This document shows, piece after piece, positions 4,603 to 58,765 of a stretch of 64,000 bases of DNA (its first letter is position 1; the number at the start of each line of letters is the position of its first letter). The DNA is from Octopus vulgaris. Taxonomy: Eukaryota. The notes beneath the pieces are model-generated. The model did not search any database, had not been told where the DNA came from, and saw only the letters and a list, made by a program, of their open reading frames with translations. The position numbers and the translations under genes were made by a program. The stretch is taken from contig OX597825.1 in NCBI GenBank assembly GCA_951406725.2, positions 38,440,001 to 38,504,000 on the forward strand. Reading direction: 5' to 3'.

Positions 4603-6491
4603 CAACAATAGGACAAGTCAACAATAGGACCTCTCCAGAGACAAAATGGGGATGTAGTGAATAACCCTATTGAAATGGCAGAAATGTTGGGTCAACAGTA
4701 TGAAAGTGTCTTCAGTGAACCATCTAAAACCATGAAGATCCATGGCCCAGGAAAATTCTTCAAGGATATCGCCCATACTAAACCTACCCTATCCGACATT
4801 GATTTCAACCCAGAAGACATAGAAAGAGCCATAGACAAGCTCTCCATGCACTCGGCTGCAGGGCCTGGCGGTTTCAATGCCATGATACTTAAAAACTGCA
4901 AGGTACAATTGTTGAAACCCCTTTACATGATATGGAGGGAATCTATGGAAAATGGCAAAATACCAAATACATATAAAGAAGCACACATAACTCCAATACA
5001 TAAAGGGGACAGCAAATCAAAACCAAAGAACTACCGACCAATCTCACTGACATCACACATTATCAAGGTCTTCGAAAGAATATTTCGTGGAAAACTGGTT
5101 GAGTTCCTGGAATCCAACAATCTGATGAATTGCAACCAACATGGATTCAGGTTAGGTAGATCATGTCTTTCCCAACTACCGGCACACCATGACCAAATCC
5201 TAGAAAATCTAGAGAATGGATACAACACAGATGTTATTTACCTCGATTTTGCCAAGGCATTTGACAAGGTAGATCATGGCATCCTGGGTCACAAACTTCG
5301 AAAGCTAGGAGTAAGAGGAAAAGTTGGTACATGGATACATGAGTTCCTTACAAATAGAACTCAAACAGTCACTGTGAATGGAACCCATTCAACACCATCA
5401 CCTATGACCAGCAGTGTTCCTCAGGGTACAGTACTCGGCCCGATCCTGTTTCTCATCCTCATCTCTGACATAGATGAAGATACAACCAGCAACGTCTCAT
5501 CCTTTGCTGATGACACCAGGGTCATGAGACAAATCAAAGACGAGGTGGATACAGAGGCCTTACAAAAGGACCTGACCACCATATATAAATGGCAGAAAAC
5601 AAACAACATGTTGTTCAATGATAAGAAGTTTGAACTAATTCGCTACGGAACAGATCAAGATCTGAAAAATACAACAAACTACAGAAACCCATCAGGACAA
5701 CAAATAATGGAAAAACAGTATGTGAAAGATTTAGGCATCCACATGGGAACCAACCTAAAATTCAGAGAACACCTTGACTCAGTCTGTCTTACTGCAAGAA
5801 AGTACAGCGGGTGGATCTTGCGCACCTTCAAATCAAGAGATACCTCAACAATGAAAACCCTCTGGAACAGTATGATACTTCCGAGGATTGACTACTGTTC
5901 TCAGTTGTGGTCACCAACAACAAAGGGCCAACTATCTAAGATGGAATCGCTCCAAAGAAATTTTACCTCATACTTCTCAGAAACGAGGGACCTGGAATAT
6001 TGGCAAAGACTCAAAACCTTGAGGATGTACTCAATAGAAAGAAGATTTGAGTGATACCGAATTATATACATTTGGAAAATGATAGAGCAAAAGGTGCCAA
6101 ACTTTGGTATCAAAACCTACAACTCACTGCGCCACGGAAGACGCTGCCAGCTACCACCAATCAACAAAAAGGCTGGCCAGGCAGCAAAAACCCTGCGAGA
6201 ATCAAGTCTGTTGGTTCGAGGAGCACAACTATTCAACTCCATTCCGGTACATGTCAGAAACCTATCAGGATGCAGTGTGGAATCATTCAAATTGCAGCTG
6301 GATAGATACTTAAGCACCATTAGAGATGAACCCCATCTCCCAGGATATACACAACGAGCACAAACTGACTCAAACTCGCTCCTACACATGTCAAAATTAA
6401 ACAGAGAATACAACCTGGCAACCACACCAGACTCTGAGGGTGGAGTCTTCGACTTGGCCTGAGCATGGACTCAAACTCAAATGAAATGAAA
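4603..6491 (+). mobile_element. 5'-truncated CR1/L2-group non-LTR retrotransposon (LINE)
   Basis: Continuous RT-ORF2 frame from KSTIGPL (4615) to the stop at 6462; short 3' UTR ending in (CTCAAA)2(TGAAA)2; no endonuclease domain present. Confidence 0.93.
4615..6462 (+). pseudogene. Reverse transcriptase ORF2 (RT plus C-terminal domain) with one in-frame stop
   Basis: Motifs NYRPISLTS, QHGFR, YLDFAKAFDKVDH, VPQGTVLGP, FADD, KDLGI. ORFs 4657-6054 and 6079-6462 share one frame, split by TGA at 6052-6054 (RRFE*YRIIYIWK). Confidence 0.92.
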
Positions 6492-7213: not shown

Positions 7214-7779
7214 AAATATATATATAGCAAATTAATATTATTCAGTATTAGCAATTTCAACCAGTGATCAGCATATTTCAAAAAGTGTCAGGACCGTGAA
7301 TTCTATTTAAATATAAGCAATAGGAGAGACCACCATGTGGATACTTTGTATACTAAACCTAGACGTGAAATCGTCTTATCATGAAATTTGTGTTCTCAAA
7401 TTAGCAAGTTGCTAGACAACTGAAAAGAAGTAACCATAACACTGACGAGAAGTAAACATAGCACTGAATTCCATATCTTAAGGTTTTGACATGATTATTC
7501 AATAATTTCGTGGCAAGACGGTTTGGTGTCTATCTTTAGCATACAAGGCAGCCACATAGTGATCACTCCTATTGTTTATATATATATATATAATATTTTC
7601 TTTATATAGAATTGCAGCGAATTCAATATGATCAGGAGAAAAAATACATATTTTTTTCTTTATATAGAACAAAGGATAAAATCGTATTAATAATTTTATC
7701 AAATGGCCGGCGTGAAATAAAACCTCGTAGGTAACGTTTTATGCTAGACTTATAATTATATAGATAATTATATCAAAGA

Positions 7780-7976
7780 GTGCGGATTAACCACAACAGC
7801 ATGCACGCTAGAAATAGTTGCCAATTGACTCTAAAACCACCTCAATACTCCATTTGTACAGGTTTTTGTACAATACTCCATTTGAACATCGGGCAGTTGA
7901 AAAATATATAAGACCTGAGGTGTTTTTAGAGTCATTTAGCATCTATTTCTAGCAAGTTGTTGTGGTCAATCTGCAC
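7780..7976. repeat. MITE-like foldback with ~60 bp imperfect inverted arms
   Basis: GCTAGAAATAGTTGCCAATTGACTCTAAAACCACCTCA (7807-7844) pairs with TGAGGTGTTTTTAGAGTCATTTAGCATCTATTTCTAGC (7916-7953). Confidence 0.75.
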
Positions 7977-8054
7977 CTTTTATTATAATTTCACGGAAGC
8001 ACGCTGCCCCTTCGTTTAAGCCATCGCAAAAATCGATGTACAAGGAAAAGACAC

Positions 8055-16824: not shown

Positions 16825-17158
<334 letters not shown>

Positions 17159-29765: not shown

Positions 29766-31624
29766 TATAAAGTCGGATTTTCTCTGTTTTAACGAGAAGT
29801 TTTCAAAATTTGCTTCATCACATCCTTTCAAATAATATGGGCAAGAAGGATTTTATGAATTTTTAGAAAATTCCTCCATTCCTTATGAACCGATTCCTCG
29901 ATTTTTATTTTGAACTTAAAACAATGGTAAACGCATTTTAGTTAAAAAGAAAAAAAATCAGAATCTGTATGATTTCTTTCAGCCCAACTCCCACTTTCAG
30001 TACCGATTTTAGCTCACTTGTAACAAAAAAAAAAAAAAAAGAGAAGAAAAGAAAAATGAAACGTTTTGGAAATCCCCACCTCCTTTATTTTTAAACAGAA
30101 TGGTTTTTGATTAATTGCAGCTCCCATGAATCCAAAGATTCCGGCTTCTTTCGAATTCTTTTTTAGTTATATTTTTGAAATACGGACAGTCCGTATCTAC
30201 TATTTGTTTCCATTTATAATTTGAGAATAATATTCAGACAAAAAGGTATCTAATTTAAGGGTGATCAAACTGTTGTTTCTAGCAAATCTCACGACCACTT
30301 AGTGCCTTCCTCGTCTATTTGTCACTCTTGTTTAGATCAAGTGTGGTCATGGATGACGGGTGGTTACGAGATTTAAGCAAGAACACCAAAAAGATTTCTA
30401 ATTTAAACTTTTAACTCACCCCCTCACTCACCGAATACGTGTGTATGTGTGTACGCGTCCGAACGTGTGTGTAAGAATAAACATACATATAAATACTCTA
30501 ACGTATTCATAAATCTCTCTGCCACATTAATGAAATTCCTTAAACACATGCATACACAGAAAAAGCATAAATATAAATCTTATTTTGTTTCTATCACACA
30601 TTTTGAAAATATAACATTAAATGAAAATATTGAAATTAGGTATACTGATGTAATTTTTCACGTTGAATCCAATTTTGCGAATCATTTATTACAGAAAAAG
30701 TAATATACTATAAAGGTTTAAAATTTGATAAATAGTGCGTGATAGTTGTGTGACATAAACTAAAATTAAGCGATACAAGAAATCTTGAACAAAGTGAAAT
30801 CAATTATATGTTGTATGTAGACACAGAGAAGGAGGCATGCATGTAAGATAATATATATACATACAACGAGAGAGCGAGAAGGAGTGTGGTAGGTATATAA
30901 AGAGGGAGGGAAGCAGCAGAAGAGAGACTTCATGGCAGAATGTGGAGATAAAGGGATTATTTCTTGTTGCAGATTATATTTTGTTGTTATTATTATTTAC
31001 GAACTACCTTTTTGGCACGCAAATTTCGAATCTCAGATTCCTCATTTTTCATCAGGACACACCATTTCAGAGAATTTGGGGACGAAACACGCAAATATAA
31101 CCACATACACTCTCATATTTCTACTACAGATATACAGATTTTCTTTGTGTCTTGCAACCCAGTCACTAGTCGTTCTAATAAGCAGTGAGTGTGTTAAATA
31201 TATATATACGTGTGTGTGTTTGTGTGTGTTTGTTTACATATATATATTTTTAATTGTTTCTATCTATATACGCATTATGTAAGTATGTAGGTATGTATGC
31301 ATGACTGTATGTATATGTATATATATATATCAATAGAATCCAAGGAGTGGATGATGCAGGATCAATATAAATGTTTCAATGGAATTCATTGCCTTGTTAC
31401 ATAGCCTATGCTTCTACCATGAAACCAATAATATGGTGGGCATTGATATGCCGAAATCGTAAGTCTACCTCCTTAATGAATACTCACCGGCATGTATATG
31501 TGTGTATATGTTTATGTATATATATATATATGCGTGTGTGTGTGTGTATAGTGAGAGAGAGAGAGAGAGAGATGGAGAGAGAGTGTGTATGTGTCACCAT
31601 GATTGACCACTAAATCTACAATTA

Positions 31625-31775
31625 CTCCGTATTCTCTCTATTTCTTCGTGTTCTTTTCTGTTGAGGAGCACAGGCCCGAAACGTAAAATACTTTCTCACT
31701 TTCCCGAGCGTCAAACTAATACACTTGCTCATGTTTATACACCTGTCTCCGTCTTTTGCTTTTCTGTAAACTTCA
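31625..31775 (+). mobile_element. Short Penelope-pLTR-like repeat with hammerhead-like motif (copy 2)
   Basis: CTGTTGAG-GAGC-ACAG-GCCC-GAAAC-GT-A; 3' end abuts (AT)n. Confidence 0.65.
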
Positions 31776-31781
31776 AACATA

Positions 31782-31814
<33 letters not shown>

Positions 31815-31849
31815 ATATATATATATGTATGTATATATATATATGTATA

Positions 31850-31946
<97 letters not shown>

Positions 31947-31973
31947 ATATATATGTATGTATGTATGTATAGA

Positions 31974-32155
31974 TGGAATTTACAAAAAACAAAAGACGAA
32001 GACAGATGTATAAACAACAAACTGGTGTATTAGTTTAACGCTCGGGAATGTGAGAAAGTATTTTACGTTTTGATACTACGCTCTTCAACAGAAAGGAACA
32101 CGAGAAAATATGCAGAGAAAAGAAAACAAAGCTGTAGGGGCTAGCGATCAACCAT
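31974..32155 (-). mobile_element. Short Penelope-pLTR-like repeat with hammerhead-like motif (copy 3)
   Basis: Reverse complement CTGTTGAA-GAGC-GTAG-TATC-AAAAC-GT-A; inverted relative to copy 2. Confidence 0.65.
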
Positions 32156-36347: not shown

Positions 36348-37554
36348 TAATAAATCATATGGTACACACTTGATGGCTTTCCGGTTCACTTTCGCAGACT
36401 TCACAGATTATGTATTTGATGAATGAAAGACACAGAAGATGAAGATCACGAGAATGTTTATTAATCACTACAATTCTAGCATTGGTGCCTTACGAGTGGT
36501 GTACTTAACAACTGCTTAGAAGTATGCGACAGTTTAGATATGACTACAGCTGATTGCAAGATGTATCTCATTAAAATAATGATTGTTCCGTAGGATATCT
36601 TCTCGGTTTGTGTAGAGAAAAGCAGCAAAGGAAATGATACTGCTTCATTTTTATATAAGATCGATCAAAAACATAAATAAATAAATAAATAAAATAACAG
36701 CTGCAAAAAGTAACGAAAACACAACACAGAGTAAGAAGTACTAAATATAACCGTTAACAGATACGGATGTATAACGCCCTCGTTTAGAATGTATGGCGCA
36801 CGTACACTTGCTCGTGAAAACATCCACGAAATGACGAGCTTACTCACAGGCGTGCCTTCGCGCACAGTAAATTAAATATCAAGTTAGTGTTTGTAAGAAT
36901 GGAGAGGCTAGAGTCAAATTTAATTCATTCATACCTGAAAGCAAATTATGATTACTTATTTGGTTAACGGTTACTCAAGTTCATTCCCACTGCATTGGGT
37001 GAAATGGCATTTGTTAGTATATAAGCAGTCGTTGAGTATCCTTCCCGTGAGAGATCGATGCCAGATGGATAAAAGCAACTGTAGTAATTAGTAAACATTC
37101 TGCGTCACCGCCATCTTCTGCGTCACTCATTAATCATATGCATACATACAAATATATGTATACGCGTATATATATAGTCAATTCAAATACGTGAATAAAA
37201 AGGGACAGCATGAGGATGTGCGGACGTGCATTAGAAATGTATGTGCTTGAAGTTCGGTGAAAGGAGAAAATTCGACTTTTCGAGCACATTCAACATTTCG
37301 TAGGAAAATGAAAACTCCACAGGAAAAGTAATCGCCGTTGGGATACTTGTAAATACATGCAAAAAAAAACACACACACAAACAGATACACATACACGTTC
37401 ACACACATAAACACATATACACAAACTCATGCACACACATATATGTTAGAAACGAAATAAAAGCAGGCTAAGTATATCGTCCCACTTTACAGCATCTACT
37501 TTTTTATTCCAACATAATTGTAGTGATGTAAGTGTGAATATGCAAAACCTATTT

Positions 37555-37825
37555 TACAGCAGATTCTGAAATAGCTGTGCATATGGTGCTCATTTCGTTG
37601 AACAATGATTTCCATATATTCCGTCTTCAGGGAGAAAGAATTAAGGAAGGAACATCCGTAATAATTGATACTCCTTAATTCCTTGACAATGGAATTAGTA
37701 ACAACTAATAACTTTTGTTAAAGATTTTCCTTCTTTCTTCCTGAGGCGGAATAGTTACTTTTTATTTGGAAATATTTGCTTAATGAGATATGCAACTTAT
37801 GCACAGCTATTTTAGGAACATATGT
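37555..37825. repeat. Foldback/MITE-like inverted repeat
   Basis: AAATAGCTGTGCATA (37569-37583) pairs perfectly with TATGCACAGCTATTT (37798-37812); inner ATTCCGTCTTCAGGGAGAAAGAA pairs with TTCTTTCTTCCTGAGGCGGAAT. Confidence 0.75.
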
Positions 37826-38049
37826 AAAGTACGTAAAATACATTTACTCTAACAACTCTCCAAGTGAGTTTGAATTATAAATTACAGCTGTAAAGTGAAA
37901 CCACATGCGTACGCTTTTCATACTCCCTTTCTAATATATATCTACCCACGTAATGATGAGCTAATATTGCTATTCACTGAGTCAGCTCTCGACACAATTT
38001 TTGTTTTCGTTGTAGTTTTATCTGTACTCTCTTGTAGCTCTCATTTATG

Positions 38050-39309: not shown

Positions 39310-39605
39310 GTTACTTATTCGTGTTATTATTGTTTTTACATATTTTTGTATTCTTATTCGTGTAACATCGTCCGTTTTCCCGTCCTTGTTTTGTATACAT
39401 TCGAGGCTTTCTTCCAAGGAATCTAATGCTCTTGGCTTAGATTTTCCTTTGGGGCTGGCCAGGTCGGAGCAATCTCAAGATTAATCAGCCGAATTTGCGA
39501 GGATGATCCGGTTCTTGACTGAAGATTGAAGGCTTCGAATGTCCCGTCCGTGTTTTTTGTATCGTCTTCTAAATGTTTTGCGTTCTTGTCCCAGTTTCTA
39601 TTTTT
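39310..39605 (+). repeat. Interspersed repeat (copy A); homolog at 45060-45345
   Basis: Shared AATCTAATGCT...GGGGCTGGCC...GGAGCAA...CAGCCGAA...TGACTGAAGATTGAAGGCTTCGAATG. Confidence 0.75.
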
Positions 39606-39623
39606 TTACACATATATACACAC

Positions 39624-39683
<60 letters not shown>

Positions 39684-40589: not shown

Positions 40590-40627
40590 TATATATATAT
40601 ATATTATAGTATTTTATAATGCATCCT

Positions 40628-40697
40628 GGCCGGTTAACTCAGTTGGTTAGATCGTCGTGCTAATAACGCGAATGTCGTGGATTCGAGTCCCATACTG

Positions 40698-40701
<4 letters not shown>
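40628..40701 (+). tRNA. tRNA-Ile(AAT), probable pseudogene
   Basis: GGCCGGT/ACTGGCC-A acceptor stem, TCGTG-CTAATAA-CGCGA anticodon arm, TTCGA T-loop; two D-stem and one T-stem mismatches; no oligo-dT terminator. Confidence 0.85.
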
Positions 40702-40775
<74 letters not shown>

Positions 40776-44659: not shown

Positions 44660-45345
44660 TTGAGGCGTTACGTGCACCCCCCCGTTTGTTTGTCCAATTT
44701 TAAAACCCTGCACGACTTCTATACACACTGTCTTTTACTACCCGCCATTGCTTCTTCACCAAACTTTTTGGCGCCCTCCGATTCTTCCTCCCATCCTCCT
44801 CCCCTCTTCCTCCCATCCTCCTTAATCCCTTCTTTCTCCTTCTCTCTTGGTCACTGATTCTGTCCCCTGCCTTCCACCCTCTTTGATTCCCTCTCTCTCT
44901 GTCTCTCTTTCTCTCTCTCCTGCGACCTGCTGCTTCTTAAACCATTCTGTTGGCCTTCGTATCTCGACCAACATGTGTCCCCGCTACCGAAACGGTAATT
45001 ATTTCTACGCCAGCTATGTTGTTGTTGTGTTTTTGTCTCATTTGGTCTAAAGTCGTATGACAACCACCGTTCTATATATTTTGTTTATTCATTACTGTTT
45101 TCAATTTCGTTTTCGTCTCTTGTATTCACATCCGTCTTGTGCGTTCACATTCCTGTCTTCTACCAAGAAATCTAATGCTTATAGCTTAGTTTTTTTTCTT
45201 GGGGCTGGCCGAGTTGGAGCAAATATCAGAATTGAACAGCCGAAATTTGCTATGATGATTCGGTGTCTGACTGAAGATTGAAGGCTTCGAATGATTTGTC
45301 TGTGTTCCGTGTTCGTCCCTTCCTGTATTTCACGTTCATTATATA
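44660..45345 (+). repeat. Interspersed repeat with pyrimidine-rich tract; 45060-45345 homologous to 39310-39605
   Basis: Direct similarity to copy A, including an identical 26-mer; possibly a Penelope-like 3' region (inference). Confidence 0.55.
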
Positions 45346-45359
45346 TAAAAACATTCATT

Positions 45360-45414
<55 letters not shown>

Positions 45415-48400
45415 ACATACGTATGTATTTACCAATGTGTGTGTGTATACATAGTCACATGAAATATACACCCCCACCCAAAAAAGAATAACAAGAAAAG
45501 TCAATTGGATGAACATAGAGAAAGTAGAAATTTGACATCCAGTGAAAGTTTAAAATGGTAAACTAAGTAACGAATTGACGTTTTTGGCATAGCTCTTTGT
45601 CGGAGAGATGAAAAATACCAAAAGAAAAGGAAAAGGAGGAAGGAGCTGATAGTACGGAACGAAACACCTGTGTCATTAAACGGCCAGTAAATAACTGACT
45701 GGAAGTTGGAGACAGTAGAGTATGTAGGTTCTGCAGTCAGTAAAGGGCAACAATATTCCGTGTGTGTGTGTGTGTAGGTGTGTTTGTGTTGGAGTGGGTT
45801 AGGCGTTTCTATTTTGAGTGCTATGTTACGTTAACGTGTATGTGGAATACAGAAAAGTTGAGAGTAAAAAAAAACAATAAAGTTACAGGAAGTGAGTATA
45901 TACAAACGTACATGCATATATATATATATATATATGTATCACTACAAGCACAAGCGCATACACACGCACACACACGCACGCATACACGTGCTAAAAATCC
46001 CACGTATACCTACCCACACAAGTCCTCGTTCACACACACATACAGACACACATACACACGCACACACACATGCACACAAACATACTTCAAACTACCATTT
46101 AAACACCTTTCTACTGACCATTCTCCTATGCACATGTGCAGGGAAACACACAACAGACTCCTACCAAAGTTCTTACTATAAATTCTTCCTACGATCTTAA
46201 GTGACCCTAGTCCAACCACACACATACATAAACAGCCTCAACCACACACACACACACGCACATACACGTGCTATCATTACACGCACACATATACACGGAC
46301 CTGCCCGCACGCACATTCCCACTCATACACACTCATACCTCCTCTTGCACTCTCCTCTCATAGAAATAACTTTTTCTTCAACCATTCCCTTCCGGTCATT
46401 TCAATATGTGACTGCGCGTGTATCGTTGGCGATTTTCTTTCACCGTCTTCCCTTTGCTGAGCGTCCAATAATACAGTACTTATTCCACGTCCTCGTGTGG
46501 CTTTTCCTTGCTTGTTGTTTGGATTGACTATATATATATCCATAGATAAATATATACATACATACATACACACCTACATATATATATATATATAAACACA
46601 AACGAATGATTATTTCAAAATCCGGGCAGATAATTTGTACGCACTCCATATCGTCCAGTTGGTAACATTAGAAAGCGCGTAGATCATACTTTTGCAGCTA
46701 TAGATCCGTTCCGATAGTGAATCCTGAGTTCACTTCGATGAACTGCTCATAAAATCTCAGAGTGTATTAGAAGTACGTATTACTTTACTATTTGTACCCC
46801 TACATTAAATTTACATTACTATATTTTTATTTTTTTACATCTTGGCTGATTTTGAAACATGTATCACTCTAGACTAGTAATGAATCCGTTTGTCACATAA
46901 CTGAGTGACCGAATACTCACAGGTATCAACTAAATATGTGTACTCCATGTTTACTATTAGTTCATTCATTGAGCATTTGTGATGTTTGAATGTCTTGTTT
47001 TTTTCTTTTCTGATTTTTTTTTTATTTGTTGTCAACACTTAGGAGGTAGTTACAAGTAAACAATCGAAAGGCCATTGTTAATATTCAAGAAATAGTAACG
47101 CTAAAGGCTTGAATGACGAAATACCGAAAAGACTTTTGTATATATATATAAGAATGTAGATAAATATCTAAATGTGGAAGCGTATTCAAATTATATAGAA
47201 TATGTAGAATTAAAACGCTCTGTATCTTCTGCGCAGTGAAAATGTACTTCTGTTAGATTAAAGCAGTCCTTTTGGTTGACAGCTGACCTAATTTCTGACT
47301 GATTTTTCGCCCCCCCCTCCTATTGCTATAGCGCTCAGTACCTTAAACAACCTAGTTATATTCTAAGAAATATATTATGCTTTAGTTTTATCTATATCTT
47401 ATCAAATTTCAAAATTGCCTTCGAATTATTTTCGTTCCATATCTTTGACAATTTAATGCTCATATTTTCCATCAATATTACTTGTTTACATATTATGTAG
47501 GTGATCAAATATCTCTCTATTTATCGTTGTACAGTAAATTTGTTCCCAAACCATTCTCGCACTTACATTGAGCCAATATATCTACCTTAATGTAAATGTA
47601 ATACCAACCAATTTCCTTTTCATTTTTCTGACTATTCTAACGACATACATATTAGTTTTGCCTAATAATTTATAATATTTCATAAAGTTACTGCCAATAC
47701 ACTGCATCAACTACAAGTTGCTCTTCAGTCTCAGGACATCGTTTATTGAGCAAACCTATGGTCAAAGTTATTCAAGGCAGGGCCTTCTAAGCTTTCTTTT
47801 TACAATATGGCACTACGAAACACACAGTATCAAAATGTATTTTTAATAAAACAGTACATTTTGATTTGAGGTAATTTACTTGTTACGTCTAGCAGATGGA
47901 GATGGGAGCCAGGATCATTCTTTAGAATTTTTTTTTCATATAAAGACAGGTTGCGAGAACATATCTTCATATGGCGAATGAGTGATGTTTCTCTTCACAT
48001 AAGGTTATTTGCTAAAGTGTCCTCCTTTTATGCATTACAGATCTGAATGAAAATTGCCAGGTGAAGAATTATTTTGCTGTTGGTTCTATATTTGGTGATG
48101 TGATTAAACCAATTTATTTTTCTTTATTCTTTTTTTTTTCGGAAATGCTCGTATATTAAATTTGCTCTTCGATTTACTGTAGATATTTATGCTTAGTGAT
48201 AGAAGATACGAACCATATATTTTTTTTTAAATATCATCTAATTATGCACGTGTCCAAATATTGCAGCTGATCAGTTAAGCACGTTCCTTATCGATAAATA
48301 TATGCTACAGATTTATTCAGGTAGCCTAGTGCACTTGACTTGTTTGGAATTTCTTTCAAATAATTCGATCGTTTTATTAAATTGACAAACACCCACACAC

Positions 48401-48949: not shown

Positions 48950-49860
48950 ACTAAATTCCACTGAGAATTGCTCTTCACCAACCATAATCGATTTATTACC
49001 AATCTAACACACATTGCCAACTCAGGTACCTAGAAAGCTTTATTGCCAATTAAAAGGCGAGTGACGAGCATTAGGCATGTCATATTATGCTATTTGGTAA
49101 TATTCAATTGTCCTCATAATATTGTTTTGTAGAGAGAAGAGTTTTATTGTTCAGTATAGAATGTTGTAGTGAGAAATTCCAAAGCCTTATGGTCTATAAT
49201 GTTTCCATTACCCACATTCTAGATAATACACAAAACCATATTTTACAGTTCTTCTAGCATGTTTAAATGGTATTTGTCATATTTTCGTTTTCCAAAGGCT
49301 ATTATTATTCCTTCAGAATATGCATTTCTCTACAAGCTATGTTTTTAAGTGCTATGTTTGTTTCAGTTGTCATTCAATGCGAAAGAATATGACCCGTGTA
49401 TATTTTTCAGTTCCAGAGTTTCAATTTATGTCCGATGCGTTAGTGTCGTCAATATCTGTACATTGTGTTGAGATTTACATCTCGAAGGGGTTGTCCTGCA
49501 TATGGATTTCAAATGTGACTCCATGATTAACTATATTGCTGTTATAAAATCTTGATGTACTCTTATTTATAAAATATCTTAGATTAAATTTCTGAAGAAA
49601 TGTGACATACAGCAGACAGAAAGATGAGTTTTTATTCATATAAAGGCTGCGAGAATGAATCTTCAAGTAGTGAATGTGTAACCTTTCCCTTCAACATATG
49701 AATATTTGCGAAAGTGTCCTCTTTTTCATACACATTTGCACGCGAATTTTTATTTTCTCTTTGTTCTATATATTGCTGATGTGATTAAACCAAATCCTTT
49801 TACTTTATTACTTTTTTAATGCCCGTGGGTTTACTTCGTTCTTCGATTTACTGAAGATAT
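48950..49860 (-). mobile_element. Very degenerate CR1/L2-like RT relic; 49705-49860 duplicated at 48008-48186
   Basis: Minus strand VNHGV..FEIHMQDNP...IDDT, reminiscent of GVPQG..F.IY..D..YADD; both sites share AAAGTGTCCTC...TGATGTGATTAAACCAA...TCTTCGATTTACTG. Confidence 0.35.
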
Positions 49861-57875: not shown

Positions 57876-58129
57876 ATTACAGAGTACCGAACGCGAGGGA
57901 ATGCAACTCTAAAAGAGAGCTTCTTAGAAACAATTTCAGCCGCATATCATATAATTTCATAATTAAAGCACGAAATTCATTTCGTGCACATTTATGTGAA
58001 TTAATGCCCTTCTTATAAATAAATTCATTTAAAGGGAATAATTATATTTTTCCATTATGAGTTTTTTCACGCTGACTACTTGATAAATTCTTATAAGGAT
58101 TTTATGCTATTATAAATTATGGACGCCAT

Positions 58130-58323
58130 GATAGATCGTTAGCTCCTACACGCATTGTTTTCTCTCCTTGTTTCTCTCCTTGTTTTTTCCTGTGTATCTT
58201 TCTGTCGAAGAGCGTAGGCTCGAAACGTAAAAGACTGTTTCTATTCCCGAGCGCTATACTAATACATTTGTTTGTTTGTGTTCCACCTGCCTGCGTCTTT
58301 TGTTTATTTTCGTAAACTTTCCC
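58130..58323 (+). mobile_element. Short Penelope-pLTR-like repeat with hammerhead-like motif (copy 4, best preserved)
   Basis: Homologous to copies 1-3; ends at TATATATAT. Confidence 0.7.
58197..58234 (+). ncRNA. Candidate minimal type I hammerhead ribozyme, variant core
   Basis: TCTTT | CTGTCGAA | GAGC-GTAG-GCTC | GAAA | C-GT | A | AAAGA: stems I and II pair perfectly; palindromic loopless stem III (ACGT). Confidence 0.5.
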
Positions 58324-58765
58324 TTTATATATATATGTAGGTTGATTGAAATTCGGTGGCGCTCTTGAGTTTCAAGCATGATTGTAAGAGTTAGCCATTT
58401 TGAATAAGATGTTGCTATATGGGTAACATTTAGTTGAAAAATATAGTATGGCGAGCAGGGAAATTGACCACGACACCGCTTGACCTTTCTCGGTTAATCA
58501 CAGTCAACCTTACGGTAATAACAATCAATTTCTCTCATTCATATTGAAAAGAGTCTGACATCTAGCATCCCGCTTGAAACTGAAGACGACCAAAGAATTT
58601 GAATCAAACTGTTTTGATCAATATATGTAACTGCCAATAAATTTGGTGAGTGCCCTTATTTTATTTCTCCTCTCACTCGTATATATGTATTATGTATTGC
58701 ATATAAGTATGTAAGTATTATGCATCCATGGATGCATGTATGTATGTCTGTTTTATGTATGTCTG

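Follow-up and report, generated by a model that had tools for sequence, protein, structure and literature searches.

Background

Minimal type I hammerheads of Penelope-like retroelements were described by Cervera and de la Pena (2014; PMC4209133), who list U3-A8 as a core variant, and the hammerhead consensus leaves exactly positions 7 and 17 free (PMC7151607). The function of the hammerhead in Penelope-like elements is treated as an open question (PMC8557442), and it is dispensable in vitro (PMC11167929). In the anole element, cleavage is assisted by protein, insertion in vitro proceeds without the hammerhead, and no RNA ends were found at its cut (PMC11167929). Naiads spread without canonical hammerheads (PMC8557442), and retrozymes are reported to derive from pseudo-LTRs (pLTRs) (bioRxiv 10.64898/2026.07.22.740005). 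As for core position 6, a natural A6C hammerhead is slow but active (PMC3088659; PMC7151607) and cuts well in Mn2+ (PMC7151607), and a mutational scan reported low activity for all changes of the CUGA turn except the 3-8 swap (PMC9901934). PMC13282606 reports on the Penelope families of an octopus, with no mention of ribozymes in the available text, and the available portions of PMC11014351 and PMC6765202 contain nothing on hammerhead position 6. A hammerhead with A6U throughout a family was not found described in the literature searched, the scope of which stops short of Lunse et al. 2017, Arkhipova et al. 2017, and the supplements of PMC8557442 and PMC9901934. Both this class of element and its minimal ribozyme are already known. 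Lunse et al. 2017 is reportedly concerned with Penelope hammerhead variants.

Repeat Copies in the Window

The window, that is, the whole 64-kb stretch analysed here, belongs to a host genome of 2.8 Gb that is rich in TA microsatellites. Self-comparison found four homologous repeat copies in it (E 4e-46 to 6e-18; next match E 0.03), as the original prediction had proposed (Table 1). With the copy at 58130-58323 (+) as reference ("first copy"), identity was 86% for 16927-17080 (-), 76% for 31984-32149 (-), and 75% for 31632-31773 (+). Every 3' end adjoins a TA-rich repeat, in agreement with the AT microsatellite predicted at the end of each copy; the starts originally assigned were too late, since the 58k copy runs from about 58121 and the 31.6k copy from about 31595. 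The element's own 3' end reads TTATATAT, and hence the last ~9 bases of the 58k copy merge with the TA target. The third and fourth copies lie tail to tail over one TA array (31782-31971). Decay has changed G12 to A in the 32.0k copy, introduced a stem II mismatch in the 31.6k copy, and caused CpG changes in the 17k copy. Neither arrays of the repeat unit nor a Penelope RT/GIY-YIG frame were found in the window. A genome search with the window repeat returned 1,079 candidate matches, 40 of which were scored, with 88-100% identity.

The window also holds a 480-codon open frame resembling a LINE reverse transcriptase (4612-6054, +) and a tRNA-Ile(AAT) at 40627-40702 (+), directly followed by a TA array, which could be a gene, a pseudogene, or the head of a SINE. 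Two further two-copy repeats were noticed, each with copies 72-74% alike: one at 39409-39676 and 45158-45405, ending in TA arrays, and another at 47929-48186 and 49629-49860. The imperfect inverted-repeat stretches at 37439-37941 and 7766-7990 resemble small DNA transposons.

Hammerhead Motif and Predicted Fold

The hammerhead layout proposed for 58197-58234 was confirmed in the sequence, and the signature CUGU-N-GA-R does recur in all four window copies (4/4). Its assignment to the Penelope-type minimal type I hammerheads also holds, given that the consensus layout of PMC4209133 (Fig. S3) is matched except at position 6. The extra base between 9 and 10.1, the G10.1-C11.1 pair, GAAA, the palindromic 15.2-16.2, and H17 are all present; the core is not CUGANGA, with U6 in 16,703/17,348 exact 28-mers. 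The extra purine after A9, initially taken as part of the variant core, is instead conserved in published Penelope minimal hammerheads (PMC4209133).

A relaxed hammerhead descriptor gave 100 matches in 585 kb of genomic DNA, largely chosen for the U6 family, and 0 in its reversal, which, together with the genomic 28-mer counts, places the motif beyond chance. Rfam yielded no hammerhead match at E<=10 for either the whole window or 58150-58300; the Rfam matches in the window, consisting only of microsatellite-driven miRNA models plus a tRNA, were set aside. Stem I has only 3-5 A-U-rich pairs, the folding energy (MFE) of the monomer is no better than that of shuffles (z 0.35), and the predicted dimeric hammerhead fold reaches -14.7 kcal/mol vs. 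-22.4 for the best predicted cofold. Two further features were considered and rejected. A loop 2 pseudoknot with the upstream CUAC showed no covariation, as a number of old copies do not keep CUAC and no matching change occurs in the sister family (by eye), and a 3' splice site at the hammerhead core would find its YAG in the A7 subfamily only.

Table 1. Position of the repeat copies and of the predicted hammerhead parts within the window.
Feature	Position	Strand	Remarks
Solo pLTR copy of Penelope-like element (assignment almost certain)	58121..58332	+	From 5'-end hotspot to fixed 3' end
5'-end hotspot of short copies	58121..58130	+	Around GACGCCATG
Pyrimidine-rich spacer	58148..58196	+	Variable length
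Minimal type I hammerhead motif	58197..58234	+	Made up of the core, stems I and II, GAAA, half of the palindromic stem III, and site 17
Stem I	58197-58201/58230-58234	+	
Core, C3 to A9	58202 (C3) to 58208 (A9)	+	U6 at 58205; extra A at 58209
U at core position 6	58205	+	Hammerhead consensus: A; from genomic 28-mer counts
N7	58206	+	All four bases common among subfamilies
Stem II	58210-13/58218-21	+	
GAAA; palindrome ACGT; A17	58222-25; 58225-28; 58229	+	
Predicted cut, between A17 and 58230	58229..58230	+	A or U at position 17, depending on the subfamily
Second solo copy, A7 subfamily	16927..17092	-	Flanked by two TA arrays
Third solo copy, older subfamily	31595..31779	+	Decayed
Fourth solo copy, older-type sequence	31974..32155	-	G12 lost

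Parent Penelope-Like Element

Thirty loci with the repeat share a common fixed right end followed by TA, their left ends differ, and two of them extend, by way of a long stretch rich in pyrimidines and CA, as far as a GIY-YIG-like frame. The nuclease piece had 12,045 candidates in the genome, of which 150 were scored and 20 loci taken, nearly all picked for long open frames. The pLTR repeat lies downstream of the long RT/GIY-YIG frame on the same strand in 20/20 of these loci; position 6 is T in all 20, and G8 was lost in one. The frames reach 853 codons and encode, in this order, an RT, a zinc-finger-like linker, and a GIY-YIG nuclease. Pfam recognized RVT_1 (E 1e-7) and, weakly and below its cut-off, GIY-YIG (E 0.08); the motifs DKG and YIDD, the LYIGQTG of the nuclease, and a C-x4-C-x2-C linker before it (CSRPRCRTC) could be read directly. 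This linker agrees with the CX2-5CxxC trait of the Neptune clade, a trait shared with Nematis. The general traits of EN+ Penelope-like elements were also observed, namely a single ORF with RT and C-terminal GIY-YIG, direct pLTRs, an optional 3' tail, and an inverted 5'-truncated partner. The arrangement pLTR-ORF-pLTR was found at locus L075, the one of the 20 long-frame loci that shows both direct pLTRs.

From these sequences, the repeat can almost certainly be assigned to an autonomous Penelope-like retroelement, as its pseudo-LTR end. The window repeat is a solo pLTR end, because the pLTR is tied to the ORF elsewhere and no such frame occurs in the window. The original prediction had offered an abundant non-autonomous retroelement or a solo pLTR; the latter part stands, and a separate non-autonomous retrozyme is not needed, because the parent's RT and GIY-YIG frame sits upstream in longer copies.

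Position 6, Subfamilies, and Constraint

Exact genomic 28-mers numbered 16,703 with U6, 197 with A6, and 448 with C or G at this position, so the U6 first seen in the window copies extends to the whole family; as controls, the reversed 28-mer had 0 matches genome-wide and the U4A 28-mer 113. Free variation at N7 was likewise found as expected, with all four bases common among the 100 U6 28-mer matches listed (T 43, A 25, C 19, G 13; hand count). U6 is carried by old and young subfamilies, including the youngest one (end branches 0-0.02), and by 46/46 pattern-fitting copies from the ORF-selected loci; among 100 matches listed for the oldest subfamily, position 6 was U in 80, C in 11, A in 8, and G in 1. 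An A6 master lineage was rejected, since A6 copies are scattered over the tree and are 1.7x as frequent as those with a T-to-A change at position 4, used as a control (197 vs. 113). A relic A6 lineage may exist; the A6 matches in the oldest subfamily and a weakly supported group of four A6 copies (93/71) neither show it nor argue against it.

Constraint was assessed on contigs from runs of four coded organisms (number aligned: A 20,001, C 10,267, D 6,892, B 152). At 58205, no letter but U reaches >=2% among the table rows listed. If CpG transitions are set aside, variation within 58202-58229 in the same rows is limited to N7 (four bases) and position 17 (T 8-25%); the U6 family rarely has C or G at the latter (246 matches). 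The outer stem I pairs change without compensation in these contigs (58197 T>C, 58233 G>T). Non-CpG changes affect 0/26 places of the core and stem II vs. 15/48 flanking places (hand count; Fisher p 0.0007), a contrast that leaves out window-private letters, is drawn against low-complexity flanks, and treats places that are not independent; other pLTR words besides the hammerhead are also conserved. As judged from these alignments, the hammerhead fold is under constraint, because, CpG decay aside, subfamilies differ only at the hammerhead-free positions 7 and 17. Of the two signs of a functional fold that had been asked for, conservation of the core above the flanks was thus found, and compensatory change within the family was not, with none in stems I or II; the sole double change in stem I separates the U6 family from its sister family.

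Copy Ends and Traces of Cutting

If the RNA were cut at the upstream hammerhead, copies derived from this RNA would be expected to begin at +1, with positions counted from the predicted cut on the L075 copy. Among 30 of 41 scored loci, picked by the sequence behind the pLTR, 10 copies start in that sequence, one at +12, and 19 cross the cut; 20 of the 30 reach into the pLTR, with 11 starts at -89 to -123, and none of these 20 starts at +1. Similarly, 20/40 copies not chosen by their 5' end start at -91 to -110, a set picked by core or downstream words, with 30 loci by the A6 pattern, in which diverged old copies align shorter; the 58k window copy starts at -109. This 5' hotspot may correspond to a likely transcription start, or to RT stalling at an upstream hairpin that ends there. 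At the other end there are two fixed positions, the main one at about +109 and a second at +273, 164 bases further, which is used by 12 of the 30 behind-pLTR loci (hand count). An inverted head-to-head partner accompanies 13/30 of these loci (hand count), and the only tandem copies among them are two-unit partial tandems.

Where copies are joined to a TA array, the three A's that follow the cut hold about 23 junctions, those of GAAA 14, and a TA inside loop 2 15 (hand count in 100 of 128 matches listed), so no spike of junctions occurs at the cut among them (23 vs. 14, p 0.19). An early hint of a 5'-end spike at the cut (5 true truncations/30 of 54 loci; 7/27) disappeared in the larger list, in which TA micro-homology dominates. 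The copy ends indicate that templates are mostly uncut at the hammerhead, because copies run through the cut, none start at +1, and the junctions show no spike there.

One contig carries the same short direct tandem twice (L212 1279-1902 and L216 1291-1887), with +328 joined to -72. This tandem places two hammerhead motifs about 400 bases apart and is possibly a deletion derivative or a duplication.

Sister Family and Other Hammerhead-Bearing Repeats

A sister repeat family of about 215 bases with sharp ends has at least 12,245 copies (exact 27-mers). Its core is mostly CCGACGA (C4 73, U4 25, and U6 0 in 100 matches listed), and relative to the U6 family it keeps stem II, has a changed loop 2, and swaps one stem I pair from C-G to G-C. 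An older sister lineage carries G17 (173 matches; about 11/12 of those sampled share diagnostic letters), which breaks the H17 rule. A common starting point was observed in 13/20 sister-family copies, and no Penelope frame was found beside the family at 20 loci. Members often lie tail to tail with the U6 family over one TA array (L024, L025).

Other repeats with hammerhead-like motifs were noticed. A second hammerhead family, with a GGCTG/CAGCC stem II and the cores CTGAAGA, CCGATGA, and CTGTTGA, lies beside TAA repeats (L010 791 and 1213, L132, L144, L149). Another repeat family (L128, L136, L137, L140-L143, L151, L152) has consecutive core-like words, including a CTGTTGA that precedes a stem and GAAAC, and lacks a standard stem I. 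A U3-A8-variant hammerhead with a 6-pair stem I was seen directly upstream of a U6-family copy (L018, about 1400-1440, -), and a repeat with a CCGA-core hammerhead-like motif occurs downstream of a U6 copy in L011 and at about 3050-3150 in L033, where it forms an inverted pair.

Proposed Mechanism and Alternative Readings

On balance, we consider it probable that the repeat is the pLTR of an autonomous Penelope-like element with a likely weakened U6 hammerhead, which would depend on dimer formation or on the element's protein even for slow cutting and which insertion likely does not need. The proposed course of insertion follows that of the anole element PAc (PMC11167929), with uncut RNA as the main template: the nuclease would nick TA-rich DNA on either strand, and the RT would have two possible internal starts on the RNA, both shortly behind the upstream pLTR. 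The RT would then run back through the uncut hammerhead to the start of the RNA, giving solo copies of ~210 bases, often as inverted pairs, and the downstream pLTR would give rise to longer copies. Running back from an internal start to the RNA 5' end would thus produce many ~210-base solo copies without a separate SINE.

Whether the motif retains residual cleavage or is a dead fold appears about evenly balanced. Weak residual activity is favoured because the catalytic guanines and H17 stay and A6C shows slow activity elsewhere, and a dead retained fold is nearly as likely because of the mutational scan and the C4 and G17 lineages. Taken as a full explanation, the same Penelope pLTR with a catalytically dead motif, the shape of which would either serve as a signal by which the element's protein binds or is positioned, or be a remnant still to decay, is a possible but less probable account. 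It agrees with the lack of a genomic footprint of cutting in the copy ends, with the spread of three lineages that each have a core change of their own (U6, C4, and G17), with insertion in vitro needing no cleavage (PMC11167929), and with the spread of Naiads without canonical hammerheads (PMC8557442); however, G5, G8, G12, A13, and A14 are fixed, with change confined to 7 and 17, G17 does not rise above background in the U6 family, and every lineage examined has a single core change rather than several. The opposite case, a U6 ribozyme that is fully active in the cell through compensation by protein, Mn2+, or a tertiary contact and that processes tandem transcripts, would draw on the Mn2+ response of A6C (PMC7151607), the anole hammerhead switched on by its protein (PMC11167929), and the persistence of U6 into the youngest subfamily; it is nevertheless decidedly unlikely, as 0/20 copies from the upstream pLTR start at the cut and the loop 2 pseudoknot lacks support.

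The short copies could also form a non-autonomous SINE- or retrozyme-like element, amplified from solo or short tandem copies by the Penelope enzyme. Both of their ends are fairly fixed, there are short direct tandems, of which those at L212 and L216 share one junction, no Penelope frame accompanies the 20 sister-family loci, and retrozymes derive from pLTRs (bioRxiv 10.64898/2026.07.22.740005). However, copies with behind-pLTR sequence, which need a tandem ORF-type template, share the same start hotspot, short copies grade into ORF-bearing ones, and the window has no unit arrays, which leaves this origin unlikely. Returning to the weakened hammerhead in an autonomous element, it is conceivable, if rather unlikely, that U6 is a selected brake, keeping the hammerhead uncut during RT copying until it is later switched on by protein or Mn2+. 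Sister lineages would then have reached the same state by the single changes U6, C4, and G17 with the other core kept, Penelope hammerheads would be conditional switches, and standard CUGANGA searches would miss whole high-copy families. Independently of the brake, the family amounts to a natural experiment, in which a lineage has spread in several waves and in >16,000 copies across related organisms with the CUGA turn changed and the other core kept, and descriptor searches demanding A6 miss such large families.

Comparison with Known Systems

The motif resembles the Penelope minimal hammerheads of PMC4209133 in its place in a pLTR, U-rich 5' flank, short stem I, and mostly solitary copies, as well as in the extra base between 9 and 10.1, G10.1-C11.1, the GAAAC-GU palindrome, and H17. 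It differs from them in position 6, which is U here and A in 56/56 of their Fig. S3 rows, where the descriptor required A6. The natural A6C hammerhead of phage Bcep176 (PMC3088659; PMC7151607) is also changed at this position; however, that is C6 in one phage sequence with a full stem III, and here an animal retroelement has U6 in >16,000 copies. The non-LTR retrozymes of animals (bioRxiv 10.64898/2026.07.22.740005; PMC7229834) are likewise non-coding, pLTR-related, and equipped with a type I hammerhead, but they form tandem arrays of non-coding hammerhead units with no ORF in the family, whereas the present copies are dispersed ends of a coding element.

As for the element, an RT followed by a C-terminal GIY-YIG, DKG, and the CX2-5CxxC linker are shared with the Neptune/Nematis-type EN+ elements (PMC8557442; Craig et al. 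2021), together with microsatellite targets, partial tandems, inverted 5'-truncated partners, and an optional tail. The tail is about 164 bases here vs. 30-40 in those elements, and a further difference is that a long stretch rich in pyrimidines and CA separates the ORF from the hammerhead, the likeness being one of features. The anole Poseidon element PAc (PMC11167929; Frangieh et al. 2024) has in common with the octopus family its AT-rich targets, two fixed 3' ends, and templates uncut at the hammerhead. In PAc, a consensus core overlaps the start codon and protein-assisted cleavage has been shown, whereas here the core has U6 and lies in non-coding sequence, and any cleavage is putative.
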